From an uncultured Dehalococcoidales bacterium (GTDB lineage Bacteria; Chloroflexota; Dehalococcoidia; Dehalococcoidales; GCA-2688105), in contig CAZCLE010000002.1 of the NCBI GenBank assembly GCA_964499445.1, positions 19,677 to 83,676 on the forward strand: DNA of 64,000 nucleotides, read 5' to 3'. Under the pieces are notes generated by a model. The model did not search any database. It saw only the letters and a program-made list of their open reading frames with translations, and was not told the origin of the DNA. The position numbers were made by a program, and so were the translations under genes. This document shows, one piece after another, positions 14,427 to 31,123 of this stretch. The first letter of the stretch is position 1. The number at the start of each line of letters is the position of its first letter.

Positions 14427-14466
14427 TGACAAGCTCTTGACAAACTTTTGACAAATCCCCTATAAT
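14427..14466 (+). promoter_or_regulatory. Consensus promoter preceded and overlapped by three phased TGACAA repeats
   Basis: TTGACA (14437-14442), 18-nt spacer, TATAAT (14461-14466). TGACAA occurs at 14427, 14438 and 14449, which is exactly 11-bp phasing. Confidence 0.55.
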
Positions 14467-14529
14467 TACGGAAAGGTCAAGGATTTCCAACATCAAGTAA
14501 GGAGAGTTAACATAAACGCTAAAGAACGT

Positions 14530-15519
14530 GTGATGGCGGTATTGAACCGTCAAAAACCGGACCGTATGCCCTGCTTTACTGCCAACTCGACTATAACCTA
14601 CGACCAAATGGAAAAGGTGGGCGCCTTCTGGCCGGAAGGGCATGAAAAGGCAGAAGCCATGGCTAAACAGGCTATGGCTGCCTATACCGTACTAGGCTTT
14701 GATGTGGTAAGGGCCCCCTTCTGTCAGACCATGGAGGCTGAGGCTCTTGGTTGTCCCATAAAGTCCGGCGGCGAGAAAGGTATCCCCGGTATGGCACATC
14801 CAGAGGCATATTCACTAGATGATACCCCGGTGATTCCCGACGACTTTCTGTCACGGGGGAGAATACCGGAACTACTCAAGGCAATTACAATAATGAAGAA
14901 GGAACTGGGGGATGAGGTACTCATTGAGGGTGGAATTATCGGACCCTTCTCCATTGCCGCTTCTATGTTAGGGGTGACAAAAACACTGAAAGCTACCGTT
15001 AAGGCACCGGATAAGCTTCTCCCCTTCCTGGATGTAGCCGAAAGGGCAGGAACCATGTTAGCCCATGCCCTTATTGATGCCGGCGCCGACATCATCTCCA
15101 ATGAGGATATGAGTGCTTCTCCCGCTATTATAATGCCTAATAGTTACCATGACTTGGTATATGAATTCCAAGTCAAGCAGTTTGCGGAGATAAAGGTTCC
15201 CAAGATACTTCATATCTGTGGTGACGTGGGGCAGACCATAGAGTGGGAGGCGAAGAGCGGCCCCGAAATTTTGAGTATAGAACCTGCCACTGACCTAAAG
15301 AAAGCCAGAGAAAAAGTTGGAGAGAAGCCCATCTTTATGGGCGGGGTAGACACGGCTAATGTATTGTTTATGAAAGATGTAGAAACAGTAAAAGCGGAAT
15401 GCAGAAAGTCTATAGAGGCGGGTATTCAGATATTGGCTCCGGGCTGCGCCGTAGCCCCGGGTACACCCATAGAAAACCTTATGGCTATGGTGGAAGTAGC
15501 CAAAAGTTATACAAGTTAA
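14530..15519 (+). CDS. MtaA/CmuA-type corrinoid methyltransferase (URO-D family), paralog 1
   Basis: 329 aa. Motifs: DRMPCF, Zn ligands LHICGD and APGCAV. The conserved N-terminal KERV motif lies upstream of the called GTG, so the real start may be a non-canonical ATA at 14512 (see findings). Confidence 0.8.
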   Translation: MMAVLNRQKPDRMPCFTANSTITYDQMEKVGAFWPEGHEKAEAMAKQAMAAYTVLGFDVVRAPFCQTMEAEALGCPIKSGGEKGIPGMAHPEAYSLDDTPVIPDDFLSRGRIPELLKAITIMKKELGDEVLIEGGIIGPFSIAASMLGVTKTLKATVKAPDKLLPFLDVAERAGTMLAHALIDAGADIISNEDMSASPAIIMPNSYHDLVYEFQVKQFAEIKVPKILHICGDVGQTIEWEAKSGPEILSIEPATDLKKAREKVGEKPIFMGGVDTANVLFMKDVETVKAECRKSIEAGIQILAPGCAVAPGTPIENLMAMVEVAKSYTS

Positions 15520-15891
15520 TCAAAACCTTCACCGGTTTTGCCGAGATTAATTTATTGATAATCTATAATAACATTGCCAGAAGGAGGTAAGGCAGGGAAA
15601 AGAAGAGTATAAAGCGTGGGTCAAAAATACATGACTAAACCGGTAAGTTGACCTGTATATTAAGAATAGCAATGGCTATAATGTCTATATAGAACCCAGG
15701 TAAACGTGCTCTAATATATAATAAGAAACAAGAAGAATTTTGGACATAGTCTACAGGTAGTAAAAAGATTTTTGAGCAGAAAGGTATCATGTAGGCGAAA
15801 ACCTTAAGCGGATTTTTGGGTTATTAAGTACTTTAATATTTAGTACTTAGTTTACATAAATCCGCTCGTTGTTTATTATGGGCCAGAATAA

Positions 15892-16071
15892 TGGCTTGAC
15901 AAAAATTTAAGATGTGGTAAAGTAATATACAATTCGCCATCTGACAAAGAATTGAAATGTGGTAGAGTAATATAAAATTAGCCACTTGACAAAAAACTGA
16001 GGTATGGTAAAATAGCGCACAATTTGCCGCTTAACAAAAAACTGAGGTGTGACAGGTTAACATAAGTTTAT
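15892..16071 (+). repeat. Four tandem 45-bp direct repeats, each a -35 / extended -10 promoter-like module
   Basis: The hexamers TTGACA 15896, CTGACA 15941, TTGACA 15986 and TTAACA 16031 have a period of exactly 45 bp. Each is followed after 16 nt by TAAAGT, TAGAGT, TAAAAT or CAGGTT, and these are preceded by TGg (TGa in unit 4). Confidence 0.8.
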
Positions 16072-16169
16072 TCTCTAAAGCCATAATTAAACACGAAAGG
16101 AGGTGATACCCAAGAAGATAAATTTAAAGATAAATAGGAGCAAGCTATTTATTAAAAAGGAGGAAAAAA

Positions 16170-17552
16170 ATGGCTAGAAAACCAACTACTGCAATGGCAT
16201 ATAAGAGCGGCGATGAGATGATTTTCGGAACTACCAAGTTCCCGGTTACCAGCAAGAGGGGAATTAAGTACGGTGGAGGCTATGTCCATCCTACGATAAA
16301 ACCTCATCCCAGACCGGGCACCGAAAAGACCAAGAAGACCCTGATGCGGGAGTATGAAAAGATGAACTTCGATGCCCTGGAAAGAATGGTCATCGTGGGA
16401 CATCCTACTCTTGTGGTCGAGAATGAGCACGTCTTCCAGATGACTCATACCCCCGACTGGGGTGCCGATATCGCCGCCCTGACAGCTAGGATGATGGACG
16501 ATTTGCAGGCTAAATATGGGCTGAAGTCCGCTTATACGGCGACTATAGCCGACCTGCGCAGGCCAGAGAGCGTACACATGCGGACAAGCGATTATACCAA
16601 GGAAATCATTGAATCCTTTAAGGCGTGCTCCAAGTATGCCGACCATGTTTCCATTGAGTCCATGGGTGGTAAGGAAGTATTTGACTATGCCCTCATCCGC
16701 CAGGATATGGCGGGTATTTTATTTGGCATAGGTTATCTGGGCTCTAGAGACATGGAGTGGATGTGGGACCAGATTGTGGCTATTTGTAAGCAGAATAACT
16801 GCATTCCCGGCGGGGACACCAACTGCTCAGAGGCTAACACTGCCATGTTCATGGCAGGGGGTATGACATCCAAGGATGTGCCTCATGTATATGCCGCTCT
16901 AGCCCGTGCTATTTCGGCGGCAAGGACTATGGTAGCCTATGAGTGTGGTGCTACTGGACCTACCAAGGACTGTGCCTATGAGGATCCCATTGTCAAAGCC
17001 ATGACTGGAGTTCCTATCACCACCGAGGGCAAAACTAGTGCTTGCGGGCACTCCGACTTGGCCAGCAACCTGATTGCTGCCGTATGTGACCTTTGGAGCA
17101 ACGAGGCCGTGGAATATCACGATATGTTCGGTGCTACCACTACCTCGGTCTTCGCCGAGATACTCGGTTATGATTGCGCTCAGTTCAACTGCGCCATCGA
17201 CTTGGGTTTGGCGAAAGAGATGCAAACTATCCTGGTCAACTCTGACGCATATCGGGATTCCCACAGCCTGATTCTGGTGCCCGATAATGCCTGGGCGATA
17301 GGTAACGCCATCGTCAGCAACACGGCTAAGGGATACTACACCAGAGCCAGAGCCGGAGCCATGAAGGCAGGTAGTATCATCCTGGCTGATGCCAAGATGA
17401 AATTGACCGCCTTTGAAAAAGATGCCCTAGAGGATGCAATGAAGCAGATGGAGGCTCTGCCCGAGGATGAAGGAACCTTTGTCGATATGTGTATGAAGAA
17501 ATACACGAAGTTAGTGCCAGGCTTTAATCCTGATTCCTATGGATTGAAATAG
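16170..17552 (+). CDS. mtaB: Methanol:corrinoid methyltransferase
   Basis: 460 aa and collinear with my recollection of Methanosarcina MtaB. Motifs: AYKSGDEMIFG, SIESMGGKEVFDYA, GGDTNCSEANTAMF, GPTKDCAYED, EGKTSACGHSD, WSNEAVEYH, NPDSYGL. The Glu/Cys/Cys zinc-ligand contexts are conserved. Strong SD. Confidence 0.9.
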   Translation: MARKPTTAMAYKSGDEMIFGTTKFPVTSKRGIKYGGGYVHPTIKPHPRPGTEKTKKTLMREYEKMNFDALERMVIVGHPTLVVENEHVFQMTHTPDWGADIAALTARMMDDLQAKYGLKSAYTATIADLRRPESVHMRTSDYTKEIIESFKACSKYADHVSIESMGGKEVFDYALIRQDMAGILFGIGYLGSRDMEWMWDQIVAICKQNNCIPGGDTNCSEANTAMFMAGGMTSKDVPHVYAALARAISAARTMVAYECGATGPTKDCAYEDPIVKAMTGVPITTEGKTSACGHSDLASNLIAAVCDLWSNEAVEYHDMFGATTTSVFAEILGYDCAQFNCAIDLGLAKEMQTILVNSDAYRDSHSLILVPDNAWAIGNAIVSNTAKGYYTRARAGAMKAGSIILADAKMKLTAFEKDALEDAMKQMEALPEDEGTFVDMCMKKYTKLVPGFNPDSYGLK

Positions 17553-17690
17553 AAGTAGAGGACATTAGAAACATTGGTTCTGGGCCCACCCGGTAAAACT
17601 TTTGGTTATGTGAAAGTAGTCAAAAAGAAGCAGAATTAGGGGTGGCTTTCCTAGAATCACTTAGAATCAATTGATAAAAAGGAGGGAAGC

Positions 17691-18440
17691 ATGAAATTCT
17701 TGGCTGATTATTCTAATATTTTCAGACGCTACGACCTTGAGACTGAGGTGAAAAAGGAAGCGGCACGTAAAATCTCCAGTGACGCTGCTTTACAAGGGGT
17801 TGGCACTTTAGTTGTTGAAGGCGAAGCGGAAGACATTGAGCCAGCAGTCAAAAAGGCATTAGAGTCCAAAGACCCCATGACTGTTATTACTGATGGACTT
17901 ATCGCTGGCATGAATGAAGTGAGCCGTCTGTGGGATGAGGGCGTTTATTTTCTGCCCCAGGTTATTCTGGCCGCGGATGCCATGAACGCCGGCATCGTCC
18001 TATGCGAGAAGAAGATGGGCAAGCCCATGGCGAGGAAGGGTAAAGTGGTTACCCACACTGCTGAGGGTGATATTCACGACATCGGTCAGATTATCGCCAA
18101 CGCCCTTTTCAATGCTGGTGGTTTTGAAGTTATCAATCTGGGGTGTGATTGTCCGGTAGATACGGTTGTAGCCACAGTTAAGAAGGAGAAACCGCTTCTG
18201 GTTACCGGAACAGCCCTGATGACCACCACTATGACTGCTTTTCCGAAGATTTGCCACCAGCTTCAGGAAGCGGGGATAAACACCCCCTTTATCAGTGCTG
18301 GGGGAGCAGTCGCCGAAGAATGGTCAACCTCTTTTCCGCTGAGTATTTGGGGCAAAGAGGATTCCCAGTCAGTGCCACTGGCTGAAGATGCCCTAGGCGG
18401 TATGAGTTGGGAGGATATGCGGTCAAAGTGGAACGGATAA
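17691..18440 (+). CDS. mtaC: Methanol-type corrinoid protein (B12-binding, His-on)
   Basis: 249 aa. A helical cap domain precedes a Rossmann domain carrying the DxHxxG motif (EGDIHDIGQ). It lies immediately downstream of mtaB. Confidence 0.85.
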   Translation: MKFLADYSNIFRRYDLETEVKKEAARKISSDAALQGVGTLVVEGEAEDIEPAVKKALESKDPMTVITDGLIAGMNEVSRLWDEGVYFLPQVILAADAMNAGIVLCEKKMGKPMARKGKVVTHTAEGDIHDIGQIIANALFNAGGFEVINLGCDCPVDTVVATVKKEKPLLVTGTALMTTTMTAFPKICHQLQEAGINTPFISAGGAVAEEWSTSFPLSIWGKEDSQSVPLAEDALGGMSWEDMRSKWNG

Positions 18441-18461
18441 CGAGATAAAGAAAGGCAGAGG

Positions 18462-19442
18462 ATGATTGCAGATATTATCTTTGGTTTCTTAGGTTCCGGC
18501 AAAACCACTGTTATCGCCAATATCCTTAAGGAATGGGGGCGGGATGAAAAAATTGTAGTGTTGGTAAATGAGTTCGGCGAGGTGGGCATAGATGGGGACC
18601 TGTTAGCCAGTCAGCACGGTGATGTAGTAGAAATGCCCGCCGGCTGTATCTGCTGCACCCTTCAAGTGGACTTTAGACGCCAAATGCTGGAGATAAGTGA
18701 AACCATCAATCCGCAGAGGGTACTAATTGAGCCCACTGGTGTAGCTCAAATAACCCAAATAATGTACATCATACACGCCGAATTATTCAAGGATAGAATC
18801 GAAGAAATCCATAATATCCTGATTACCGATGCTACCAATTTCATCAATTTTTATCGGCTCAACCGAAATTTCGTTGAGTCGCAGGTAAAAAATGCACATG
18901 TGGTCTTGCTGAACAAATGCGATAGAGTCAAAAAAATACAAGCCGAGGTTACCAAAAACGCTATATCTGCAATCAATCCTCAAGTTCCTGTTCTTTTGAC
19001 TGAGTTTGGGGCAGTGGAGTGGGGCGAATACAAATCAGCCCTCTCCGCTGTCCCTTGTTTGTCAGCGGATTTTGAAGCGGAACCGTCTTCCCCGACAGGG
19101 GAAGTTGAAGAAGAGGGACTTATCCATCTCCACGAGGAGGAAGATACATTAGGCTATGAATCTTTTGGTTGTACTTATGAACTTTCTTTTGATAGGCAGG
19201 AACTGGAAAAGCTGTTTCAAGAGTTGTTAAATTCTACCCTTTTGGGCGAGGAAATAGTTAGAGCCAAAGGAATATTCAGGGTAGATAACAAATGGGTAGT
19301 GGGACAACTCGCCTCAGGAGAAGTTTCCTGGCAAGAAGTTAAAGGTGTCAAACAGAGTAAAATCTCAATAGTCGGGAGAAACCTAAAAAGGGAACTGATT
19401 GGGACCGCGGTCAACCGATGTTTAGCCGGGATTAGCGGTTAG
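18462..19442 (+). CDS. CobW/COG0523-family G3E GTPase (metallochaperone-like)
   Basis: 326 aa. P-loop GFLGSGKTT, the CxCC motif in AGCICCTL, NKCD, and a C-terminal CobW_C-like domain. It starts 21 nt after mtaC. Confidence 0.85.
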   Translation: MIADIIFGFLGSGKTTVIANILKEWGRDEKIVVLVNEFGEVGIDGDLLASQHGDVVEMPAGCICCTLQVDFRRQMLEISETINPQRVLIEPTGVAQITQIMYIIHAELFKDRIEEIHNILITDATNFINFYRLNRNFVESQVKNAHVVLLNKCDRVKKIQAEVTKNAISAINPQVPVLLTEFGAVEWGEYKSALSAVPCLSADFEAEPSSPTGEVEEEGLIHLHEEEDTLGYESFGCTYELSFDRQELEKLFQELLNSTLLGEEIVRAKGIFRVDNKWVVGQLASGEVSWQEVKGVKQSKISIVGRNLKRELIGTAVNRCLAGISG

Positions 19443-19658
19443 AAGGTCATTTCCTAATCTGTTACCACTCTGTGTTGCCGACGGGATAGGAGCGGCAAGC
19501 TTGCTCGGAGGAATCTTTAGAGGATTCAAAGCAAAGTTCGAGCAAGGACAGGGTTGTTTATTATAAGTACTCAGTTGGATTGAGGTTCGTCACTGGTTTG
19601 GAATTGAAAGTCAAGTGACATAAAATTTTCAATCCAACAAGAAAAGGAGGGAAGGAAA

Positions 19659-20168: not shown

Positions 20169-20209
20169 GCGGCGGATTTGTTCTTATTTAGAGCAACAAG
20201 TGTAACAAG

Positions 20210-20570: not shown

Positions 20571-21206
20571 ATGGCTGGAGAACAAAAATATGAAGAGTTC
20601 CGTCCCCTTGAAGAGGAAGATTTGCTTAATTATCTTCCAGATGTGAGCTACAGTGAATGTGGGGCGGACAGCGATGTGGAATATGCCGAACTGGTAATTG
20701 AAGGCAAAGCCATGCCTTCTAAATGTCCCATACTGGACGAAAAAATTGCGGCCGCGATGGAAAAAGTGTTTAAGCTTGAACTCCCTTCAATACCCGATAC
20801 CGCACCAGGGACACCGGTCAACTGTGGTATCATAAAAGTTGGAAATCCAACCGCTGATTCTATGGTACTGATAAACGGAAATTGTCAGGAAACTATTTCC
20901 GTCATAAAGTTTATCCTTGAAGAAACTCAAACCGATGCCTTTTTATTAGCCATAGATACCCAGGGCTACAGCATAGAGAATGCGCTGGCGGCAGGAATCT
21001 TTCAGCCTTCCGAAGTTTTTAAATCACTCGGCGAATCAGGGCTAGCCAATGAAATTAGCCATCGGAAGGTCATTCTTCCCGGATTGTGCGAGCCTTTGGC
21101 TGCGGATATTAAAAGGTTAGCCTCGTGGGATTGGGAGGTCACATTAGGTCCGGTTAGCGCCCTTGAATTGCCACTCTATCTCATAAAAATGGCTCAAGAG
21201 GCTTAA
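20571..21206 (+). CDS. Truncated CFeSP large-subunit (AcsC/CdhE)-like corrinoid-binding protein with a degenerate N-terminal Fe-S motif
   Basis: 211 aa. The N-terminus LPDVSYSECGADSDVEYAELVIEGKAMPSKCP parallels the LPxxNCGxCGxxTCxxFA...CP Fe-S domain but keeps only 2 of 4 Cys. The C-terminus FLLAIDTQGYSIENALAAGIF...SHRKVILPGL...WEVTLGPVSALELPLYL parallels the AcsC/HgcA corrinoid domain. No TIM-barrel middle domain is present. Confidence 0.6.
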   Translation: MAGEQKYEEFRPLEEEDLLNYLPDVSYSECGADSDVEYAELVIEGKAMPSKCPILDEKIAAAMEKVFKLELPSIPDTAPGTPVNCGIIKVGNPTADSMVLINGNCQETISVIKFILEETQTDAFLLAIDTQGYSIENALAAGIFQPSEVFKSLGESGLANEISHRKVILPGLCEPLAADIKRLASWDWEVTLGPVSALELPLYLIKMAQEA

Positions 21207-21337: not shown

Positions 21338-21928
21338 TTACAATTTGACCCCGATGAGAATAGTCCCCAAGCCTCGCTGATCAAGCCCTTCAAAATAGCC
21401 TTTCTTCAAAAATATATCACAAGGCGTGGTAGGCGTACCGTAAGTAATAGAATGATATGAAAAATCGCTTTCTTCCAGGACACGCCATTCTGCCGAGCCG
21501 CACGGAATCTCAAAATGGCACAACTTTTTCATGATATCCTGGGGGAAAGATATCTTGTCCTTGTAAATAACAAAATTTTTGTGCATAAACCAGACATTTT
21601 CCTTTTGGGACAGACTGGCGATGGTTTCTTCATCATGAACCTCTTCGCCCACCACCTCATCGCCCTTTCTTAAAATCAGGGAACAAGAGCCCCACTCAAA
21701 CTCCATGTCAGTTAGGGCTACATAGATTAAATCATAAGTTAAGACTTCTCTTACCCCGACGTTGACGACCTTACCCATACCCATCAAGGAGTGCTTTTCG
21801 GCATCCTCCTCGATGCCAAGGACCTCCTGCCTGTCTTTTTCGAGAAGAGGGCTGACGTCCACAATCCCCTTCACCTTTTTCAAGGCGGCTATCATCAGGG
21901 TATTTGCCCTCATCCGGTCTATGGTCAT
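21338..21928 (-). CDS. Hypothetical protein, no recognised domain, coupled to the RamA-like activase
   Basis: I prefer the ATG at 21928 (MTIDRMRANTL...), which is preceded by GGAGGAGAA. That start lies 26 nt downstream of the activase stop. Cys pattern CHFEIPCG...PCD. Confidence 0.55.
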   Translation of the reverse strand: MTIDRMRANTLMIAALKKVKGIVDVSPLLEKDRQEVLGIEEDAEKHSLMGMGKVVNVGVREVLTYDLIYVALTDMEFEWGSCSLILRKGDEVVGEEVHDEETIASLSQKENVWFMHKNFVIYKDKISFPQDIMKKLCHFEIPCGSAEWRVLEESDFSYHSITYGTPTTPCDIFLKKGYFEGLDQRGLGTILIGVKL

Positions 21929-21954
21929 TTCTCCTCCGACGCTGAACATCTACT

Positions 21955-24005: not shown

Positions 24006-24035
24006 TTGACAATGAAGCTAGAAACAGCTTATAAT
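24006..24035 (+). promoter_or_regulatory. Consensus sigma70-type promoter of the second corrinoid operon
   Basis: TTGACA (24006-24011), 18-nt spacer, TATAAT (24030-24035), 35 nt upstream of the ATG at 24071. Confidence 0.55.
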
Positions 24036-24070: not shown

Positions 24071-24754
24071 ATGGCTTCAGAGGAGAGAGCTAAGGAATTA
24101 TTTAAAGGACTTCAGGAGGCGGTGATAATCTGGGATGAGGACAAAGTAGTGGAGCTTTGCCACGCTGTCATAGATGAAGGCGTAGACCCCTATGACGCCA
24201 CCATGGATGGTCTGGCGGCTGGAATGCAGGCGGTAGGCGACCTGTATGAAAAGAAGGAATACTTTGTCCCAGAACTTCTGATGTGCGCCGATGCGCTGTA
24301 TGCCGGGTTGGACCTCCTAAAGCCGGCTATCGTTGCCTCAGGAAGAAAGTCAAAGGTAAAAGGGTCAGTAGTCATCGGTGTTGTTGAGGGCGATGTTCAC
24401 GACATCGGCAAGAACTTAATCAAGATGATGTTTGATGTTGCCGGCTGGAATGTCTTTGACCTGGGAAAGGACGTAGAACTGAGTAGGTTTGTGGAGGAGC
24501 AAATAAAGACCGATTCTGAAATTGTGGCTATGTCAGCTATGATGACGACCTCCATGATGGGCATGCCCAAGGTCATTGAGATGATAAAGGCGAAAAATCC
24601 CAAGTGTCGCATCATGATAGGTGGCGCTCCGATAACCACCGATGTGGCGAAAAAATATGATGCTGACGGATACGCTGAGAGTGCCGCAACCGCAGTTGAG
24701 GAAGCGATGAAACTGATTGAAATGTTAAGGAAAGAAGAGGCAGCGGCAAAGTAA
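24071..24754 (+). CDS. Cobalamin-binding corrinoid protein (MtxC / O-demethylase CP type)
   Basis: 227 aa. A B12-binding-2 cap helix bundle precedes a Rossmann domain with DxHxxG (EGDVHDIGKN) and MSAMMTTSM. Confidence 0.85.
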   Translation: MASEERAKELFKGLQEAVIIWDEDKVVELCHAVIDEGVDPYDATMDGLAAGMQAVGDLYEKKEYFVPELLMCADALYAGLDLLKPAIVASGRKSKVKGSVVIGVVEGDVHDIGKNLIKMMFDVAGWNVFDLGKDVELSRFVEEQIKTDSEIVAMSAMMTTSMMGMPKVIEMIKAKNPKCRIMIGGAPITTDVAKKYDADGYAESAATAVEEAMKLIEMLRKEEAAAK

Positions 24755-24894: not shown

Positions 24895-26853
24895 ATGGCA
24901 GAAAGCACAAATCAAGAGCATGTGGTCATCTTTCAACCGTCGGGACGTAGAGGCTCCATCAGTGATGGGAAAAACCTCAAGGAGGCTTCCGTAGCACTGG
25001 GTGTGGACATAGAAGGCGTCTGTGGTGAAAAGGCTACCTGCGGCAAGTGTAAGGTTAGGATAGAAGACGGGTTCTTCGAGAAATACGGTGTTGAATCAAA
25101 GATGAGCAATCTCACTCCGCTAACAGAAGCGGAGAGAAAGTTTATCAACGCACATGCGGAGAAAGAAGGTTACCGACTGGCTTGTCAGGCTTGGATTAAA
25201 GGTGATGTTGTGGTCTTCGTCCCTGAGGAGAGCCGAATGGGAAAGCAGGTTGTGCGCAAAGCGGCGAGGGAGATAGACATCGAGCTGAACCCGGCGGTGA
25301 AGAAATACTATGTGGAACTAGCTAAGGCTACCTTGAATGATACCTTGGGCGACTGGGAGCGTATACAGGCCGAGCTTAATAAACGTTTTGGCTTGAGCAA
25401 TCTAACCATTGACTATCAGGTGCTCCTGGAAGAACAGAAAATAGTACGTCAGGGCAATTGGAAGGTGACCGTATCAGTCTGGATGGATAAAGAGGTCATC
25501 AAGATAGAGCCCGGGCTTGTGGAGAAAGGCTATGGTCTGGCAGTCGACATTGGCACCACCACGGTAGCTGGCTACCTCTGCGATCTGTCCAGTGGCGAGA
25601 TAGTAGCCACCGAGTCTATGATGAATCCGCAAGTGCTTTACGGCGAAGATGTGATGTCCCGCATCACTTATAATATGAGCCACGACGACGGCTTGGAGCT
25701 GATGGCCCGGGAGATTATTAAGGGTCTTAATCAGATTGCGGGGCGAGCCGCTGCTCAGGCAAACATCAAGCGGCGGGATATCGTTGACATGACCGTTGTC
25801 GGCAATACTTGCATGCATCATCTCTTTTTAGGTATTGATACCCACCATATCGGTATGGCTCCTTTTCCCCCGAGCCTACATCACTCTATAGATGTTAAGG
25901 CGCGCGACTTGGACCTCAAGATATCTCCAGGGGCTTACGTTCATGTGCTTCCCATTGAGGCTGGTTTCGTAGGGGCTGATAATGTAGGGGTGCTCATCAC
26001 AGAGGCGCCCTATAATCAGGATGCTATGGAGCTTATTATCGACATTGGCACCAATGGTGAGTTAATCCTGGGCAACCGGCAAAAGCTCATTTCTTCCTCC
26101 TGTGCCACCGGCCCAGCCTTCGAGGGAGCCGAGATGAAATACGGAATGCGCGCCGCCCCGGGGGCTATCGAAAGGATAGCGATAGACCCGGATACTAAAG
26201 AGGTGAGCTTCAAGGTTATCGGTAAGGAGGAGTGGAGCACGGAGTCGGAGGATATGGGGGCTAACGGTATTTGCGGCTCAGGGATAATTGATGTCGTCCC
26301 CCAATTGTTCAAGGCGGGTATTATCAACCACACCGGTCGCTTCAACAAGGATTTGACTACCCCCCGTTTCCGTGAGACTGAAGAGGGAGGAGAATTCATA
26401 ATCGCTTGGGCAAATGAAACCTCCATTAGCCAAGATATCGTAATTTGCCAGAGTGACATAAGGAACATACAGCTAGCCAAAGGGGCTATGTATGCCGGAG
26501 CCAAGCTGATGATGCGTCACCTGGGTCTGGAGAAAGTGGACAAGGTTATTCTAGCCGGAGCCTTCGGCAGCTACATCGATAAGGAATCAGCGGCATGCTT
26601 GGGTCTTTTCCCTGATTGTGATTTAGAGAATGTCTACGCTGTGGGTAACGCCGCCGGTGATGGCGCCCGCATAGCCCTCCTCAATGTGGATAAACGAAGG
26701 GAAGCTGACGAAATGGCAAGGCAGGTGGAATACATAGAATTAACTGTGGAACCGGATTTTGACAAGGTTTTTGGCGAAGCTATGTGGCTACCTCACATGA
26801 AGGACAAGTTCCCTCACATTGAGCACCTTCTCCCTGAGAAGGCGGTGAAATAA
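24895..26853 (+). CDS. RACo-type corrinoid reductive activase (N-terminal plant-type [2Fe-2S] ferredoxin plus ASKHA/DUF4445)
   Basis: 652 aa. Motifs: CGEKATCGKCKV...LACQA (2Fe-2S), GLAVDIGTTTVAGYL, and ASKHA motifs further on. Confidence 0.85.
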   Translation: MAESTNQEHVVIFQPSGRRGSISDGKNLKEASVALGVDIEGVCGEKATCGKCKVRIEDGFFEKYGVESKMSNLTPLTEAERKFINAHAEKEGYRLACQAWIKGDVVVFVPEESRMGKQVVRKAAREIDIELNPAVKKYYVELAKATLNDTLGDWERIQAELNKRFGLSNLTIDYQVLLEEQKIVRQGNWKVTVSVWMDKEVIKIEPGLVEKGYGLAVDIGTTTVAGYLCDLSSGEIVATESMMNPQVLYGEDVMSRITYNMSHDDGLELMAREIIKGLNQIAGRAAAQANIKRRDIVDMTVVGNTCMHHLFLGIDTHHIGMAPFPPSLHHSIDVKARDLDLKISPGAYVHVLPIEAGFVGADNVGVLITEAPYNQDAMELIIDIGTNGELILGNRQKLISSSCATGPAFEGAEMKYGMRAAPGAIERIAIDPDTKEVSFKVIGKEEWSTESEDMGANGICGSGIIDVVPQLFKAGIINHTGRFNKDLTTPRFRETEEGGEFIIAWANETSISQDIVICQSDIRNIQLAKGAMYAGAKLMMRHLGLEKVDKVILAGAFGSYIDKESAACLGLFPDCDLENVYAVGNAAGDGARIALLNVDKRREADEMARQVEYIELTVEPDFDKVFGEAMWLPHMKDKFPHIEHLLPEKAVK

Positions 26854-26871
26854 GCTCCGGGAGGTATATTA

Positions 26872-27807
26872 TTGATGCTTAAATATGACTTGAAACAAAA
26901 GGTCTGTAACATTGGTGGTGTGAAAGTAGGCGGTCAGCCGGGAGAGAATCCCCCTCTTCTAATCGGCAATATGTTCCAGAAGGGGGACATACTCATTGAG
27001 AGCCGGAAGGAGCGCAAGTTCAACAAGGAGGGAGCTAAGGAGCGCATCCACGAGATGGAGCGCCTCTCCCAGGAGACAGGTGTGCCCGGCTTGGTAGGCA
27101 TGGTCGCTAACGCTCTAGATGAAGTAAAGACTTATGTGGACTTTTTTACCAGCGTGACCAAGATGCCTTTTGCCATTGATATCTGGGTGCAGAAGACGAG
27201 ACTAGCCGCAGCCCGCTATGTGGCTGAGCTAGGGCTCCAGGACCGATTACTTTACAACAGCATCACCCCCTGGGACGAGGACATCGAAGCCCAGGTGGCG
27301 GAACTCAAGGAACTGGGTATCAAGCATGTTGTAATTCAGGCGTTTGATGTAGAGGATATGGGGCCCCGAGGCAGGGTCTCGTCACTCAAGAAGTTGCTAC
27401 CTATGGTGGAGAAGGGGAATTTTGAGAGCATCTTGGTGGACACAGCGGTAATGGGCTTACCGCTGACCGCCTTCTCGTTGATAGGCAATCGTCTGGTCAA
27501 GGAGGAGTTTGGACTACCGGTGGGCTGTGCTCCCTCCAACGGCACCTACATGTGGAAGAAAGCTGTGGGAGCGGAGGGCGCAAGCAAGTTCCCGCCTGTG
27601 GATGCTGCTATAGAGGCAATAACCGCTATGGGAAGCGACTTTATTTTCTATGGTCCCATGACCGGCACCGGCAGGGTCTTCGCTGCGGTGGCTGCCGCTA
27701 TCAGCCTGCTTGCCACCTGGGCTTATGACGAGGGAGCACCCTTACCCACTGAGGGTCACCCTTTGAATCTACTCTTCCCTGAGGTAGTAGAGCAATTATC
27801 AAAATAA
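26872..27807 (+). CDS. mtrH: MtrH-family methyl-corrinoid:pterin methyltransferase
   Basis: 311 aa. N-terminal GGVKVGGQPGENPPLLIGNMF matches the MtrH signature FGGQPGE. The rest is collinear with my recollection of MtrH. The start could instead be the ATG at 26875. Confidence 0.8.
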   Translation: MMLKYDLKQKVCNIGGVKVGGQPGENPPLLIGNMFQKGDILIESRKERKFNKEGAKERIHEMERLSQETGVPGLVGMVANALDEVKTYVDFFTSVTKMPFAIDIWVQKTRLAAARYVAELGLQDRLLYNSITPWDEDIEAQVAELKELGIKHVVIQAFDVEDMGPRGRVSSLKKLLPMVEKGNFESILVDTAVMGLPLTAFSLIGNRLVKEEFGLPVGCAPSNGTYMWKKAVGAEGASKFPPVDAAIEAITAMGSDFIFYGPMTGTGRVFAAVAAAISLLATWAYDEGAPLPTEGHPLNLLFPEVVEQLSK

Positions 27808-27827
27808 GAAGGGGGAAAGAAATAATT

Positions 27828-28916
27828 ATGGGAGCAGAACTTAGTTCCAGAGAGCGAGTGCTTCGATTTCTTAGGAAGGAAAAGGTAGACCGCATCCCCT
27901 GTTTCTCTGGCATGGGGAATGTACTGGTGGAAGAGGTAGAGCGTCTTGGTTGGCGTTTCGGAGATTTGCACCGAGATGCTCATAAGATGGCAATGGCGGC
28001 AGCAGCCACATACCCAGCCACCGGGTTTGAGTGTGCCGTAGTTCCCTATGATTACCACCTAGAGGCTGAATCATTAGGCTCCGTAGTTCGGTTTTACGAG
28101 AAGAAGGAAGGAGAAGAAGAAAGAATCATTTATCCTATCGCATTGCACGAATTGACGGAGAAGCTGGAGGACCTGGACCTTGAGGCGATAAAGAAGAAAA
28201 AGCCATTCGAGTTGGGAAGGATACCTCTAGTAGCTGATGCGATTCGCCTTTTGAAAAAGGAGATAGGCGACCAGGTAGCAGTCGGCGCTTATACCTTGGG
28301 TCCCTACGGCGTAGCCGGGGCAGTAGATTCTGTTGTTGACCTATCTAAGAATGTAGTGAAGAATAGAGACCTGGTGCACAAGCTACTGAAGGTTCTGACT
28401 GACTACATCGCTCAGGAGGTTAAGTTTTTCAGAGAGGCTGGCGCCGACTATGTGTGTATCCGTGAGATGACATGCGCGACAGATCTTTTAAGCCCGAAGA
28501 CGTATGAAGACCTGATTTTGCCTCATTTGCAGGACTTGTTCTCCCAGATAGACCACCCAAGGATTCTGCATACCTGTGGCGACACAGATGACGATATGAT
28601 ATATATGATTAAAACCGGGGCTGATTTCATCTCCGTAGAGCAAAAGAATCATATATGGAAGTCAAGGGAGACGATGAAGGGGACTGATATACGCCTCATG
28701 GGGAACTTGGACGTCTACCAATTGATGGCGATGTCGACACCTGAACAGATTGACCAGCAAGCCAAGCTAGTTATTGGTGAAGGTCTTGACGCATTATGGC
28801 CTGCCTGTGATATATGGCCAGAGGCGCCTGTGAAGAACATAAAAGCGCTGGTGGAAGCAGCCAAGAAATACAGCGACCCTGAGAACCCGGTCCCGGGGAC
28901 TCTCTGGTCCAAGTGA
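27828..28916 (+). CDS. MtaA/CmuA-type corrinoid methyltransferase (URO-D family), paralog 2
   Basis: 362 aa. Motifs: SRERVLRFLRKEKVDRIPCFSGMGN, Zn ligands LHTCGD and WPACD. Confidence 0.8.
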   Translation: MGAELSSRERVLRFLRKEKVDRIPCFSGMGNVLVEEVERLGWRFGDLHRDAHKMAMAAAATYPATGFECAVVPYDYHLEAESLGSVVRFYEKKEGEEERIIYPIALHELTEKLEDLDLEAIKKKKPFELGRIPLVADAIRLLKKEIGDQVAVGAYTLGPYGVAGAVDSVVDLSKNVVKNRDLVHKLLKVLTDYIAQEVKFFREAGADYVCIREMTCATDLLSPKTYEDLILPHLQDLFSQIDHPRILHTCGDTDDDMIYMIKTGADFISVEQKNHIWKSRETMKGTDIRLMGNLDVYQLMAMSTPEQIDQQAKLVIGEGLDALWPACDIWPEAPVKNIKALVEAAKKYSDPENPVPGTLWSK

Positions 28917-28932
28917 AGATAGCTAACGCCTG

Positions 28933-29085
28933 GGGTGTTAATGCTGTCACATGGCCGGAGTGTGATATCGGGTTAACTATGCCCAAGTAAAGCATGGAAG
29001 TGCTAATGGCAGCGATGAGGAAATGCGTTAAGCTCGGGTAATCGCTGCTAAAATTTGCCAGCATTGCTTTAGTCATATTGCCCTA
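28933..29085 (+). pseudogene. 3'-terminal remnant of a URO-D methyltransferase paralog plus its downstream non-coding tail
   Basis: About 150 nt align by eye at roughly 85% to 30067-30215, the last 35 codons of paralog 3 plus 45 nt after its stop. Conceptual translation GVNAV.WPECDIGLTMPK*SMEVLMAAMRKCVKLG* carries an indel and an internal stop. Confidence 0.6.
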
Positions 29086-29134
29086 AGATATGCTAAACCG
29101 CATATTTGAGATATAGTATGCAGAAAGGAATAGT

Positions 29135-30172
29135 ATGGAAACAGAACTTAATTCTAGAGAACGAGTGCTCAGGCTTTTTAGAAGGGAAAAGATAGACCGC
29201 ATTCCTGTCTTCAGTGGTCTGGGGAACATAACCGTAGATGGAATTGAGAAATGTGGTTATAAATTCGTAGGTGTCCATGAAGACGCACGCAAAATGGCGG
29301 ACGTGGCTGCAGCCACGTTCCAGATGTATGGCTTTGAGTGTGCAGTAGTCCCTTTTGACTTCGGGATTGAACCCCAAGCTTTAGGCTGTGAGGTTAATTT
29401 TTACCCTCACCATGAAGATGTTATCTATCCCACCATAAAAAAGAATCTTGCCGAGCATATAGAGGACCTGAATATCCACGTGCCCTCGGATTTAGCCAAC
29501 GCGGGGAGGATACCCGTGGTGACCGAAGCAATTCGTCTCCTGAAAGAGGAAGTAGGCAAGCAAGTGGCAGTGGGAGCCGTGATTCTGGGACCATATACCT
29601 TAGCCGGGCAGATCACCGACCCCGGGAACATGGCTAAGTTGGCGTTTAAGAAGCCAGACATGGTTCATAAGTTGCTGGACATTCTGGATGAGGTTGAAAT
29701 CGAGACCGCCAGGATTTATAAAGAAGCCGGTGCCGATTATGTAACCATCCATGAGATGGCAGCGGGAGGAGATATATTAAGCCCGCGTATGTTTAGATCT
29801 GTAGTACAGCCTCATATAGAACGAATCCTGTCCACTATGCCCTCGCCGAAGGTCCTGCACATGTGTGGCGATACGGATAGCATTGTTGAGGACATGGTAC
29901 TCTGTGGAGCCGATGCCATCAGCGTAGAGCAAAAGAACCATATAGCCGAGACCAGGCAGAAGGTGGGGCCTGATGTGCTCATCTTTGGAAATATTGACAC
30001 TTTCAGGTTGATGGCGACAGGAAAACCTGAAGATGTTGAAAGAGCGGTAAAGCGGGCTATTGACGAGGGTGTCAATGCCGTATGGCCCGGGTGTGATATG
30101 TGGCCAACCGTGCCCAAGGAAAACATGGAAGCGCTAATGGCAGCGACGAAGAAATATGGTAAGCTTGGGTAA
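29135..30172 (+). CDS. MtaA/CmuA-type corrinoid methyltransferase (URO-D family), paralog 3
   Basis: 345 aa. Motifs: SRERVLRLFRREKIDRIPVFSGLGN, Zn ligands LHMCGD and WPGCD. Confidence 0.8.
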   Translation: METELNSRERVLRLFRREKIDRIPVFSGLGNITVDGIEKCGYKFVGVHEDARKMADVAAATFQMYGFECAVVPFDFGIEPQALGCEVNFYPHHEDVIYPTIKKNLAEHIEDLNIHVPSDLANAGRIPVVTEAIRLLKEEVGKQVAVGAVILGPYTLAGQITDPGNMAKLAFKKPDMVHKLLDILDEVEIETARIYKEAGADYVTIHEMAAGGDILSPRMFRSVVQPHIERILSTMPSPKVLHMCGDTDSIVEDMVLCGADAISVEQKNHIAETRQKVGPDVLIFGNIDTFRLMATGKPEDVERAVKRAIDEGVNAVWPGCDMWPTVPKENMEALMAATKKYGKLG

Positions 30173-30433
30173 TCGCTGCTAAAATTTGCCAGCACTGTTT
30201 TAGCCATACTGGCTTCAGACATACTGAACGGCGTGTCGGAGGTATAGGGGTGGCAGAAATGATGGGCGTTAAGAGGGTTCAATAAAGGAGCCCTCCAAGG
30301 CTGGTGTGTGCTGACGTCGGGGCATCGATTTTTAGCTTCCGGTAACGCTTAAAGCCTTTTTTATCGGGTAATCCCAATGTTGACTAATGTGTGGTAAGCT
30401 TATTTAGAATTTCTATGAAGAGGAAGTAGGGAA

Positions 30434-31123
30434 ATGCATGATAAAGCTGAGCTGAGTAAAATAGGAAAGAAATTTTGGTCTTATCTGGAAATCTTGTGCC
30501 AGAAGGCAAAGGAGCTGGGAGCCTCAGAAGCAATAGCAATACCGGTTACTGATATAGTAGTGGATGAGAGAGCAAGGATAAAGTGCCTGGTGCCGGTGTG
30601 TTCTTTCTATGGTAGCAACCTGATGTGTCCCCCCAATGTGATGCCTATATCAGAGTTTAAGGAAATCCTCAAAGACTATCATGGTGCTATTTTAATAAAA
30701 ATAGCCTCGCCATCATCAGGGCCACCTGAGGAGTTGGCAGGTAAAAATGACTTGTCAAAGGCATGGGAGATAGTCATGTCTGCCAGAAGAGAGGATGAGC
30801 AGCTAACGATACCAACAAAAGAATACGCTCATGCTCTCAGAGACAATATGGAGCGACTGTACGAAATAATCAGCCAGATAGAGTCTATCTGCTTGAAAGA
30901 AGGATATTCTTTTGCTGCCGGCTTTTCAGCCGGTGGTTGCCTCTTATGTGACAGATGCGTTGGTATCGAATCCGGGTTACCCTGCCGACATCCTTTTAAA
31001 GCCAGACCGTCAATGGAGGCTATGGGCATAGACGTGGTTGCCACTGCCAAGAAAGCCGGGCTGCGGCTCAACTTTGGCCGGGATGAAGCCAGGGGATGGG
31101 TGGGGCTGATTCTGGTAGATTAA
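30434..31123 (+). CDS. DUF2284-like predicted metal-binding protein
   Basis: 229 aa. Cys clusters CLVPVCSFYGSNLMCPP and GGCLLCDRCVGIESGLPCRHP match my recollection of the DUF2284 pattern, which is often found near corrinoid enzyme genes. Confidence 0.65.
   Translation: MHDKAELSKIGKKFWSYLEILCQKAKELGASEAIAIPVTDIVVDERARIKCLVPVCSFYGSNLMCPPNVMPISEFKEILKDYHGAILIKIASPSSGPPEELAGKNDLSKAWEIVMSARREDEQLTIPTKEYAHALRDNMERLYEIISQIESICLKEGYSFAAGFSAGGCLLCDRCVGIESGLPCRHPFKARPSMEAMGIDVVATAKKAGLRLNFGRDEARGWVGLILVD

Follow-up and report, generated by a model that had tools for sequence, protein, structure and literature searches.

Cobamide-dependent methanol conversion has a characterised bacterial example in D. 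kuznetsovii. Its operon Desku_0050-0060 encodes an MtaA/CmuA protein (338 aa), MtaB (457), MtaC (247), CobW (320) and a 4Fe-4S protein (547), then a URO-D protein (354), a B12-cap protein, a 'ferredoxin' (649) and MtrH (311), and finally a PNPOx-like protein (131) and another MtaA/CmuA protein (350). On methanol with cobalt, all of these proteins become more abundant by 1 to 3.7 orders of magnitude, starting near 10^6 LFQ and reaching 10^7 to 10^9.7. The locus examined here lies in a 64,000-nucleotide stretch of contig CAZCLE010000002.1, referred to as the window. It has in common with D. kuznetsovii three URO-D proteins, MtaB, MtaC, CobW, RamA-type and RACo-type activases, a second corrinoid protein (CP2) and MtrH (Table 1). 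Judged from sequence, we consider it probable that an uncultivated Dehalococcoidia bacterium here carries a methanol methyltransferase locus of the D. kuznetsovii type, dependent on cobamide and operating by the mechanism proposed below.

Host and gene content

The host is a Dehalococcoidia MAG and not a methanogen, a possibility that the preliminary description had raised while itself arguing for a bacterial backbone. The bacterial assignment holds: phosphoglycerate kinase in the window is 100% identical to a protein of an NCBI 'Dehalococcoidia bacterium' MAG, and the nearest MtaB loci occur in Dehalococcoidales MAGs. The folate genes for DHPS (TIGR01496, 291 bits) and PabB lie 7 kb upstream of the cluster and favour the mechanism proposed below. 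The G+C content of the cluster resembles that of its flanks and the sole tRNA found is 25 kb away, so that G+C and tRNA scans gave no sign of a mobile island. Within the window, no Wood-Ljungdahl or methylene-THF reductase genes were present. All genes that had been listed are there, with very strong matches in Pfam and NCBIfam profile searches, but the list omitted cobA and a gene for a 196-aa protein next to ramA.

Table 1. Features of the methyltransferase cluster and the adjoining cobamide genes (window coordinates)
Feature	Position	Strand	Evidence
Promoter-like site, 5' of mtaA	14437..14466	+	TTGACA, 18 nt, TATAAT; 12/12 consensus (consensus scan only)
UROD1, MtaA-type URO-D methyltransferase, His-Cys-Cys zinc site	14530..15519	+	Pfam URO-D 218 bits
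Three tandem 45-nt repeats, 5' of mtaB	15897..16031	+	Promoter-like hexamers in each copy
MtaB, methanol:corrinoid methyltransferase (MT1)	16170..17552	+	Pfam MtaB 648 bits
MtaC, methanol-specific corrinoid protein	17691..18440	+	B12-binding_2 + B12-binding; DIHDIG
CobW/COG0523 GTPase metallochaperone	18462..19442	+	cobW 137 bits + CobW_C; GSGKT P-loop, GCICC motif
AmiS/UreI-like membrane protein, 169 aa	19659..20168	+	AmiS_UreI 21.3 bits, below Pfam cutoff 25
Mini CFeSP-like protein	20571..21206	+	Pfam CdhD 44 bits
Unannotated conserved protein	21338..21949	-	5 nt downstream of ramA; probable start 21928, giving 196 aa
RamA-type reductive activase of corrinoid proteins	21955..23619	-	TIGR04270 762 bits (cutoff 500)
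Promoter-like site, 5' of second module	24006..24035	+	12/12 consensus (consensus scan)
CP2, second corrinoid protein	24071..24754	+	B12-binding_2 + B12-binding; DVHDIG
RACo-type reductive activase	24895..26853	+	Four Pfam domains: N-terminal 2Fe-2S (Fer2), linker, middle, C-terminal (ASKHA)
MtrH-family methylcorrinoid:pterin methyltransferase (MT2)	26872..27807	+	Pfam MtrH 170 bits
UROD2, MtaA/CmuA-family URO-D paralog, His-Cys-Cys	27828..28916	+	URO-D 206 bits
URO-D C-terminal remnant, pseudogene fragment	28892..29038	+	tblastn to UROD3 C-terminus; in-frame stop
UROD3, MtaA/CmuA-family URO-D paralog, His-Cys-Cys	29135..30172	+	URO-D 247 bits
DUF2284 Cys-rich predicted metal-binding protein	30434..31123	+	PF10050 136 bits
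ATP:corrinoid adenosyltransferase (CobA/BtuR)	31197..31820	+	PF02572 213 bits
CobQ (cobyric acid synthase type) and BtuF-like periplasmic binding protein; cobamide supply	31946..34569	-	Pfam GATase_3 + CbiA; Peripla_BP_2
Candidate cobalamin riboswitch, 5' of btuF-like gene	34680..34804	-	RF00174 28.1 bits, below gathering score 31.5

In the methanol module, UROD1 scores 302 bits on NCBIfam PRK06252 (cutoff 244) and 303 bits on MtaA_Meth, short of that model's equivalog cutoff of 400; among solved structures it is closest to M. mazei MtaA (4AY7, E = 2.4e-63). MtaB matches M. barkeri MtaB (2I2X) over its full length (E = 9e-134). The zinc ligands, which we take from Hagemeier 2006 to be Glu164/Cys220/Cys269 in 2I2X numbering, align to conserved IESMGG, GDTNC and TKDC, and the Glu/Cys/Cys contexts first described as intact are so at all three positions. 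For MtaC the best NCBIfam match is MtaC2_Meth (241 bits). The reported DxHxxG signature was recovered in both corrinoid proteins. Compared with the reference, the three repeat copies upstream of mtaB show 100, 80 and 69% identity, with promoter-like sites at 15896, 15941 and 15986; the same consensus scan placed an 11/12 site before ramA (23810-23782, minus strand).

The RamA-type activase is an ASKHA ATPase with the Pfam domains Raco_middle and RACo_C_ter and a C-terminal 2x[4Fe-4S] domain. The adjacent gene is conserved and encodes proteins of 196-203 aa. Neither this protein nor any of 81 relatives matched a Pfam or NCBIfam family, it has 492 'hypothetical' homologs, and a library of 1.84 billion proteins holds 160 representatives. 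AlphaFold2 predicts a confident fold (pLDDT 93.5), for which the PDB gave no neighbour (best E = 0.27, TM <= 0.25).

The AmiS/UreI-like label was adopted from the preliminary description with a qualification: the window protein itself scores below threshold, but 10 of its 12 syntenic orthologs match AmiS_UreI (best E = 5.6e-11). The mini CFeSP-like protein combines a degenerate N-terminal FeS motif with a corrinoid-binding C-terminal domain of the CFeSP large subunit/HgcA type; it has no TIM barrel and matches positions 324-448 of the 450 in NF003195 as well as the HgcA corrinoid domain. Its orthologs keep CX2CX4CX16C, of which two of the four Cys are lost in the window and in one related locus (L002). 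Downstream, the riboswitch candidate aligns with the full-length RF00174 model (E = 0.0011).

Zinc sites and the route of the methyl group

In the proposed mechanism, methanol would enter through the AmiS/UreI-like protein, a candidate methanol channel, and be cleaved by the zinc enzyme MtaB, which would methylate Co(I)-MtaC. MtaC-Co(II) would be re-reduced by the RamA-type activase with ATP, possibly with the 196-aa protein as partner, and the RACo-type activase would do the same repair job for CP2. CobW, CobA, CobQ and BtuF are predicted to supply metal and cobamide. Family assignments and active-site conservation support these roles of MtaB, the two activases and the supply proteins; the mini CFeSP and DUF2284 proteins may be cofactor or redox helpers.

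The acceptor of the methyl group is less obvious. UROD1 residues H228, C230 and C306 are invariant across the three URO-D paralogs, and UROD2 aligned to 4AY7 keeps HxC and the distal Cys. UROD1, UROD2 and UROD3 thus all carry a His-Cys-Cys zinc site of the thiol type, a pattern typical of S/Se-methyltransferases in the UroD superfamily (PMC10418091). The host, however, should lack coenzyme M. Earlier doubt about coenzyme M as acceptor was legitimate; the literature assigns MtaA-like proteins no role outside methanogens. The acetogen methanol MT2 named 'MtaA' is only 29.7 kDa, apparently too small for a URO-D protein, and acetogens therefore offer no proof that a URO-D-type MtaA methylates folate. 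To our knowledge, no bacterial URO-D-type MtaA has been characterised biochemically. We also know of no UroD-superfamily enzyme that methylates a pterin. Given this and the thiol-type sites, our preferred reading is that MtrH, not MtaA, would make methyl-tetrahydrofolate. MtrH matches NF002142 (312 bits, cutoff 287), and its closest solved structure is the methylcorrinoid:tetrahydrofolate methyltransferase of D. hafniense (6SJ8, E = 9e-48). It might draw the methyl group straight from methyl-MtaC; alternatively, a methylated thiol could act as relay, with MtaA forming the thioether and UROD2/UROD3 unloading it onto CP2.

Thiol-type sites would also suit a second half running in reverse, as a split cobamide-dependent synthase of methionine or another thiol, in which MtrH would load CP2 with the methyl group of methyl-tetrahydrofolate, homocysteine would be methylated by a URO-D protein and RACo would reactivate. 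A passage of PMC7005905 has the core methionine synthase of Dehalococcoidia using methylcobalamin in place of methyl-folate, and the literature also mentions split MetH-like systems that include a RamA-like activase. The URO-D paralogs match archaeal methionine synthase NCBIfam models weakly (E = 1e-3 to 1e-5, about 20 bits) but reach 200-280 bits on MtaA/CmuA models. The presence of two paralogs and a remnant points to diversification of substrates, and the homologous D. kuznetsovii unit rises about a thousand-fold on methanol. We regard a reversed pathway as very unlikely.

Substrate of the second module

CP2 is nearest to the NCBIfam models pyl_corrinoid, MtgC and MtbC, each below cutoff, and the RACo-type activase scores 468 bits on an AcsV-like model (cutoff 800). 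UROD2 is 47% identical to UROD3 and 30% to UROD1. UROD3 exceeds the cutoffs of PRK06252 (282 bits) and TIGR01463 (245 bits) and Desulfobacterota MAGs contain many of its orthologs (63-69% identity). The URO-D remnant noticed previously is real but small (49 residues, 55% identical to the UROD3 C-terminus, E = 8e-7).

Dozens of MAGs from Desulfobacterota and Dehalococcoidia also carry the methanol half, including CobW and RamA. In 43 mtaB loci with full flanks, one from cultured Desulfospira joergensenii, we found MtaC in 43, RamA in 41, CobW in 34, a URO-D MtaA in 32, the 196-aa gene in 26, adjoining ramA, and the AmiS/UreI-like gene in 13. Another Dehalococcoidales MAG (L003) has the full composite too, rearranged and with identities of 54-85%; it shares the neighbour order UROD3, DUF2284, cobA.

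The two halves could be independent neighbours: one a self-sufficient methanol system whose MtaA would itself hand on the methyl group, the other a methyl-sulfur/methyl-selenium:tetrahydrofolate system with UROD2/3 as substrate-specific MT1 and MtrH as MT2, acting on, e.g., dimethylsulfide, methanethiol or methylmercaptopropionate. The S/Se-methyltransferase pattern of the zinc sites fits this, as does the second module's own perfect promoter-like site. MtrH is absent within 10 kb of mtaB in 38 of the 43 loci, and on Desulfobacterota-type contigs (L086-L089) the entire unit has close orthologs that stand alone. The flanks of the closest orthologs, which span 10 kb in one direction and the 1.7 kb up to the contig end in the other, contained no mtaB, so the second module could serve a substrate other than methanol. 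On the other hand, MtrH/URO-D/CP/RACo units adjoin mtaB clusters in four phyla, and these represent different sublineages (identities of 40-48% for L005/6/8/10 and 49-57% for L077, compared with 64-79% for the stand-alone L088/L089), which argues for repeated, independent joining of the halves. The D. kuznetsovii unit is methanol-induced along with MtaBC, although this co-induction may be an effect of the single transcript only, and a folate-methylating MtaA would be the first such enzyme known in its superfamily. Independent systems are a possible but clearly less favoured explanation than a joint methanol pathway.

An O-demethylase of the Mto/Odm/Mtv type, the role proposed earlier for the extra URO-D proteins, has architecture in its favour, since Methermicoccus MtoC/MtoD/MtoA/MtoB1/MtoB2 likewise comprise a CP, a 2Fe-2S RACo-type activase, an MtrH-type MT2 and two MT1. 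However, MtoB is a 47-kDa MtvB-related protein, and UroD-superfamily O-demethylases have carboxylates or non-ligands in place of the Cys zinc ligands and are about 17% identical to MtaA-like proteins. UROD2/3 (345-362 aa) pass or reach MtaA/CmuA models and keep both Cys, and the cluster has no aromatic-acid transporter. Methoxy-aromatic substrates are therefore improbable, as these paralogs belong to the MtaA/CmuA family and not to the OdmB/MtvB/MtoB type.

Comparison with known systems

In the mec cassettes for anaerobic dichloromethane degradation, MtrH and a RACo-type activase likewise accompany a corrinoid protein, a DUF protein and two or three URO-D proteins, among them an MtaA/CmuA member; a halomethane system akin to these cassettes or to chloromethane CmuA might therefore be considered. 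The MecA/MecD regulator pair and the MecJ antiporter are absent here, however, homologs above 35% identity are reported by the mec authors only from the known degraders, and the mec DUF partner is described as having the domain organisation of methionine-synthase activation proteins, not as DUF2284. This assignment we consider the least probable of all.

The resemblance to Desku_0050-0060 extends to protein lengths, which differ by few residues between counterparts matched on annotation, order and length; CobW, previously counted as an accessory outside the standard scheme, corresponds to Desku_0053. The combination of RamA, MtrH and MtaB with the accessory set had been regarded as potentially new, but its core already exists in this characterised, methanol-induced operon. 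An identical gene set in a characterised locus is thus nearly what D. kuznetsovii provides, the difference being four accessory genes that have no counterpart there: those for the AmiS/UreI-like candidate channel, the mini CFeSP, DUF2284 and the 196-aa protein.

Gene content and active sites

The cluster probably encodes a methyl-transfer pathway from methanol to folate of the type found in Desulfofundulus (Desulfotomaculum) kuznetsovii. An ORF listing combined with profile searches (Pfam and NCBIfam) bore out nearly every item of the preliminary gene list. Apart from the AmiS/UreI match, E-values of the family matches range from 1e-11 to 1e-195, so chance plays no part in these assignments.

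Genes of the methyl-transfer cluster and their positions in the window
Product	Position	Strand	Length (aa)	Remark
UROD1, MtaA-type URO-D	14530-15519	+	329	
MtaB	16170-17552	+	460	Pfam 648 bits
MtaC	17691-18440	+	249	
CobW GTPase	18462-19442	+	326	
Membrane protein	19659-20168	+	169	sub-threshold AmiS/UreI match
Mini CFeSP-like protein	20571-21206	+	211	corrinoid-binding C-terminal domain of CFeSP large subunit/HgcA only
Unannotated gene	21338-21949	-		5 nt downstream of ramA
RamA-type activase	21955-23619	-	554	TIGR04270, 762 bits (cutoff 500)
CP2, second corrinoid protein	24071-24754	+	227	
RACo-type activase	24895-26853	+	652	N-terminal 2Fe-2S domain
MtrH	26872-27807	+	311	
UROD2	27828-28916	+	362	
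URO-D remnant	28892-29038	+	49	C-terminal, in-frame stop; after UROD2
UROD3	29135-30172	+	345	
DUF2284	30434-31123	+		Cys-rich
ATP:corrinoid adenosyltransferase	31197-31820	+		profile search
cobQ and btuF-like gene	downstream of the ATP:corrinoid adenosyltransferase gene	-		

MtaB matched PF12176 (cutoff 25) over residues 5-458 and the Methanosarcina barkeri structure 2I2X with E = 9e-134. Pairwise alignment with chain A of 2I2X showed that the zinc ligands Glu164, Cys220 and Cys269 (M. barkeri numbering) are all kept (VESMGG/IESMGG, GDTDC/GDTNC and GKDC/TKDC), in line with the intact ligand contexts described earlier. Both MtaC and CP2 have a B12-binding_2 cap and a B12-binding Rossmann domain, each above cutoff, as well as the DxHxxG histidine loop (DIHDIG and DVHDIG), which upholds the assignment of a second corrinoid protein. 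Among the URO-D paralogs, UROD1 (246.3) and UROD3 (245.5) scored above the TIGR01463 cutoff for the MtaA/CmuA family (235.4) and UROD2 (215.3) below it; with PRK06252, UROD2 is borderline (243.9, cutoff 244). The HxC motif and the distal cysteine align with those of 4AY7, and this His-Cys-Cys zinc site is invariant among the three paralogs.

The URO-D remnant mentioned in the preliminary description was found as a C-terminal fragment behind UROD2. A remnant in the 650-bp spacer between mtaA and mtaB was rejected, as only short ORFs and a threefold 45-nt repeat are present there. These repeats (15897-16031, + strand) lie head to tail upstream of mtaB, with identities of 100, 80 and 69% to the reference copy; a TTGACA-like hexamer and an extended -10-like one occur in each. 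They may form a repeated operator/promoter array for methanol- or cobalt-dependent control.

The two activases indeed differ in type. The RamA-type enzyme has an ASKHA ATPase core and a C-terminal two-[4Fe-4S] ferredoxin domain (Fer4 matches at residues 486-540), with no Fer2 domain, and the RACo-type enzyme gave four Pfam matches in order (2Fe-2S, RACo linker, middle and C-terminal ASKHA domains) but is not an AcsV equivalog (468 bits, cutoff 800). The pterin methyltransferase was likewise correctly placed in the MtrH family (PF02007, 170 bits; NF002142, 312 bits with a cutoff of 287). Its best solved relative is 6SJ8, the methylcorrinoid:THF methyltransferase of D. hafniense. MtrH is encoded within the unit of the second corrinoid protein, and no further mtr subunits were found within the window.

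Of the accessory proteins, two kept their earlier labels in part. The membrane protein of the window falls below the Pfam AmiS_UreI cutoff, although the family is recognized in 10 of 12 syntenic orthologs (best E-value 5.6e-11). Because the AmiS/UreI family consists of channels that pass small, uncharged polar solutes, a methanol channel is a reasonable inference. The mini CFeSP-like protein matches its model only at positions 324-448 of 450, which covers the C-terminal corrinoid domain; as it has no TIM barrel, it does not have the architecture of the CFeSP large subunit (AcsC/CdhE) and only resembles it. The CFeSP N-terminal cluster motif CX2CX4CX16C is kept by orthologs from further Dehalococcoidia and Desulfobacterota loci (L003, L032 and L039), whereas the proteins of the window and of locus L002 have lost the first and third of the four cysteines, which suggests a recent loss of the iron-sulfur cluster. 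We infer that the protein is a corrinoid-holding or redox helper. For DUF2284, a Cys-rich protein that is rare near mtaB, our literature search yielded no more than two passing mentions.

The gene that follows ramA was absent from the preliminary description. It encodes a 196-aa protein, is translationally coupled to ramA, and has 492 homologs, all annotated as hypothetical; a set of 1.84 billion proteins contains about 160 cluster representatives. No match was obtained in Pfam (E up to 10) or NCBIfam, nor in Pfam for 81 relatives scanned singly. AlphaFold2 gave a pLDDT of 50 with 27 close sequences and of 93.5 with a deeper alignment, and a Foldseek search of the model against the PDB found no neighbour (best E = 0.27, TM at most 0.25). 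The fixed position after ramA suggests that the protein is a RamA partner in corrinoid reactivation, and it may be a distant DUF1638-like activase partner of the kind known from mec/MetH systems. This undescribed family, which is associated with RamA and has no structural relative in the PDB, could be a new component of corrinoid reactivation.

Host, genomic setting and distribution

The bacterial host proposed earlier is well supported. The same sequence as that of the window occurs within an 81-kb JGI metagenome contig and in an NCBI MAG contig. An NCBI protein from a 'Dehalococcoidia bacterium' matches the phosphoglycerate kinase of the window at 100% identity, and the other named relatives are Chloroflexota. 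Within a collection of species-representative genomes, the closest MtaB loci are from Dehalococcoidales/Dehalococcoidia MAGs (80-91% identity). The flanking genes encode bacterial housekeeping proteins (PGK, iPGM, TIM, MiaA-type IPP transferase, DapF, SufBD and UPF0182), and a folate block upstream of the cluster contains DHPS and PabB, both above model cutoffs. A methanogen as the source of the contig is ruled out by the PGK identity together with MiaA-type IPP transferase, DapF and DHPS. The term 'island' is better replaced by 'cluster': neither a compositional break nor a flanking tRNA was seen, and the ORFs scanned included no integrase.

No cobalamin riboswitch in the window reached the gathering score. 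A full-length sub-threshold match (28.1 bits, cutoff 31.5; E = 0.0011) lies at 34680-34804 (- strand), directly upstream of the btuF-like gene. A further cobamide-dependent enzyme near the cluster is a B12-binding radical SAM protein (39881-41269, - strand), flanked by two glycosyltransferase genes. The window also contains an AMP-forming acetyl-CoA synthetase (47362-49296) and two aconitase X large and swivel subunit pairs (within 49545-52714, + strand; 12487-14141, - strand), the copies being 42-49% identical; the second pair (50453-52123) lies between two genes that encode the N-terminal and C-terminal parts of a class I fumarate hydratase. A 410-aa ORF (11240-12472, + strand) without a Pfam or NCBIfam match is kept in the identical contigs L081 and L083, and a 207-aa ORF (34997-35620, - strand) has no Pfam match.

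The distribution of the genes was surveyed with tblastn, using the window proteins against 80 MtaB-bearing loci, 43 of which have full 10-kb flanks. In these 43 loci, the genes found near mtaB were those of MtaC (43), the RamA-type activase (41), CobW (34), a URO-D MtaA (32), the 196-aa protein (26), the membrane protein (13), mini-CFeSP (7), MtrH (5) and DUF2284 (2). The methanol half, comprising UROD1, MtaB, MtaC, CobW and the RamA-type activase, is a widely conserved unit that occurs in Dehalococcoidia and, above all, Desulfobacterota MAGs, and also in the cultured Desulfospira joergensenii. A second Dehalococcoidales MAG (L003) also has the whole composite, DUF2284 and cobA included, at 54-85% identity and with the second half inverted. 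Units of MtrH, URO-D, corrinoid protein and RACo-type activase also lie beside mtaB in several Desulfobacterota MAGs and in an Armatimonadota MAG (L077).

Anoxic sediments and the subsurface, where methanol is a common substrate, harbor abundant Dehalococcoidia, most of them uncultivated. The locus for methanol methyl transfer is complete and seems intact, which suggests methylotrophy in this class. MtaB shares 75-78% identity with its Desulfobacterota counterparts, which points to gene exchange with sulfate reducers. The mta ORFs of Dehalococcoidia MAGs have been listed before at the annotation level; our literature search found no paper linking MtaB with Dehalococcoidia.

Proposed methyl transfer and possible coupling of the two halves

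[quoted passage not shown] MtrH, by family and by similarity to 6SJ8, would pass the methyl group from a corrinoid protein to the pterin, and CobW, CobA, CobQ and BtuF would provide cobamide and metal. The methyl group could reach MtrH either directly from methyl-MtaC or from CP2 after a thiol relay, with MtaA acting in the forward and UROD2/3 in the backward direction.

A His-Cys-Cys site in the UroD superfamily is the mark of S- and Se-methyltransferases, with the cysteines exchanged in O-demethylases (PMC10418091). Outside methanogens, no role has been assigned to MtaA-like proteins. The earlier doubt over coenzyme M as methyl acceptor is upheld by both points, as all three URO-D proteins carry this site; no coenzyme M biosynthesis genes were seen within the 64-kb window. 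The acetogen MT2 named MtaA, a 29.7-kDa protein that methylates tetrahydrofolate (PMC13391211), is from its size probably not a URO-D protein. Because of this, the thiol-type URO-D sites and the lack of an MtaA role outside methanogens, we think that methyl-tetrahydrofolate is made by MtrH and not by MtaA. This sharpens a question that extends to D. kuznetsovii: what a thiol-specific, methanogen-type MtaA does in bacteria without coenzyme M, and why two corrinoid cycles are needed.

An unlikely answer is that the methyl group of methanol travels to folate not straight from MtaC but via a free methylated thiol. MtaA would then methylate a small thiol, which could be a coenzyme-M-like carrier or else sulfide or methanethiol; the thioether formed would be unloaded onto CP2 by the MtsA-like UROD2/UROD3, and MtrH would form methyl-tetrahydrofolate. 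If true, the relay would explain the pairing of two corrinoid proteins with two activases, the co-induction by methanol in D. kuznetsovii and the repeated joining of the halves in four phyla, and would be the first defined role for MtaA-like proteins outside methanogens.

Coupling of the halves is favored by co-induction of the units in D. kuznetsovii and by the fact that differing sublineages of the MtrH unit are joined to mtaB: identity to the window unit is 40-48% in loci L005/6/8/10, 49-57% in L077 and 83-85% in L003. Both observations speak against an independent second half serving a separate methyl-sulfur or methyl-selenium substrate, which we consider possible though doubtful. Independence is favored by the 64-79% identity of the window unit to a stand-alone unit in loci L088/L089, by the many UROD3 orthologs (63-69%) in Desulfobacterota units whose covered flanks (10 kb, and 1.7 kb up to the contig end) contain no mtaB, by a promoter-like site of the second unit that matches the consensus perfectly, and by the absence of an adjacent MtrH at 38 of the 43 full-flank mtaB loci. 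Methyl-sulfur or methyl-selenium chemistry was also proposed for type 1 mlp clusters of non-methanogens, in which several MtaA-like His-Cys-Cys proteins lie beside a corrinoid protein and a bacterial-type activase (Kountz and Balskus, PMC10418091). The window unit is similar in composition but encloses MtrH, whereas type 1 mlp clusters, marked by members of the Mlp2 and Mlp3 clades, characteristically have no folate methylase and no link to MtaB (PMC10418091). That the second half is a split methionine synthase, with MtrH as its pterin enzyme, is highly improbable.

On Desulfobacterota-type contigs, the stand-alone units have a small DUF6951 gene beside the activase (L086, 13238-13606; L087, 13265-13606; L088, 6701-7021). 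An acyl-CoA dehydrogenase gene adjoins the stand-alone unit in both contig types, and genes of the 2-hydroxyacyl-CoA dehydratase type are nearby in L088. These neighbors may hint at the substrate of the unit.

Comparison with known systems

The window shares with Methanosarcina MtaABC (2I2X, 4AY7) a full-length MtaB with zinc ligands, an MtaC with cap, Rossmann domain and DxHxxG motif, a URO-D MtaA with His-Cys-Cys site and a RamA-type activase above the family cutoff. It differs in its bacterial host, its folate genes and the attached second corrinoid cycle with MtrH, and its proteins remain under the cutoffs of the methanogen NCBIfam equivalogs (MtaB 645 bits versus 720 for NF040651, MtaA 303 versus 400, MtaC 241 versus 450). 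The MtaB and MtaC proteins are also homologous to those of the acetogen MtaA1B1C1 systems of Moorella thermoacetica, Acetobacterium woodii and Eubacterium callanderi, which transfer the methyl group to tetrahydrofolate and use a separate activating enzyme (PMC13391211). The three-gene acetogen cluster lacks CobW, a RamA-type activase, MtrH and a second corrinoid protein (PMC13391211).

The layout of the second half resembles that of Mto methoxydotrophy (MtoABCD) and of the mec dichloromethane cassette, both with a corrinoid protein, a 2Fe-2S RACo-type activase, a non-complex MtrH as pterin methylase and UroD-superfamily paralogs. The MT1 component differs, since MtoB is a 47-kDa, MtvB-like protein and UROD2/3 belong to the MtaA/CmuA family with Cys ligands. 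Zinc ligands are carboxylates or absent in the MT1 proteins of O-demethylases (OdmB/VdmB/MtvB/MtoB type), which have masses of about 47 kDa, whereas UROD2 and UROD3, at 362 and 345 aa, keep both cysteines. The methoxy-aromatic role once considered for the URO-D paralogs is therefore unlikely, and an O-demethylase function of the second half has very little probability. The same holds for a halomethane system, as Mec proteins form their own clades and have their own regulators and antiporter.

The closest counterpart is the methanol-induced operon Desku_0050-0060 of D. kuznetsovii 17T (Sousa et al., 2018, PMC5770442; Friedeheim et al., 2024, PMC10907483).

Proteins encoded by the D. kuznetsovii methanol operon
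Gene	Product	Length (aa)
Desku_0050	MtaA/CmuA	338
Desku_0051	MtaB	457
Desku_0052	corrinoid protein	247
Desku_0053	CobW/P47K	320
Desku_0054	4Fe-4S protein	547
Desku_0055	URO-D	354
Desku_0056	B12-binding cap protein	
Desku_0057	'ferredoxin'	649
Desku_0058	tetrahydromethanopterin S-methyltransferase	311
Desku_0059	PNPOx-like FMN protein	131
Desku_0060	MtaA/CmuA	350

With methanol and cobalt, every protein of this operon increased from about 10^6 to 10^7-10^9.7 LFQ units; the rise was about 10^3 for MtaA, MtaC, CP2, MtrH, PNPOx and the second MtaA, and smallest for Desku_0055 (PMC5770442). Compared by annotation, order and length, both loci comprise three URO-D proteins, MtaB, MtaC, CobW, a RamA-type activase, a second corrinoid protein, a RACo-type activase and MtrH in near-identical order, with protein lengths a few residues apart, a bacterial host and cobamide supply genes close by. 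As proxies for the Desku sequences, proteins of the Bacillota/Armatimonadota loci L065, L075 and L077 are 43-60% identical to those of the window. The window also has an iron-type alcohol dehydrogenase gene directly upstream of one for aldehyde:ferredoxin oxidoreductase (52756-55843, + strand); D. kuznetsovii uses this enzyme pair for its second methanol route, which does not depend on cobalt.

The PNPOx-like FMN protein is the sole product of the Desku operon missing from the window, which in turn has the AmiS/UreI-like membrane protein, the mini CFeSP-like protein, the 196-aa protein after ramA and DUF2284 as additions. The window also differs in having ramA and its partner on the opposite strand and both extra URO-D genes after mtrH, and in its host phylum, Chloroflexota instead of Bacillota. 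The combination of two modules, two activases and three URO-D proteins, initially thought to be new, is thus already present in D. kuznetsovii and tied there to methanol by proteomics. The locus is a known kind of operon in a new phylum, with four lineage-specific accessory genes.
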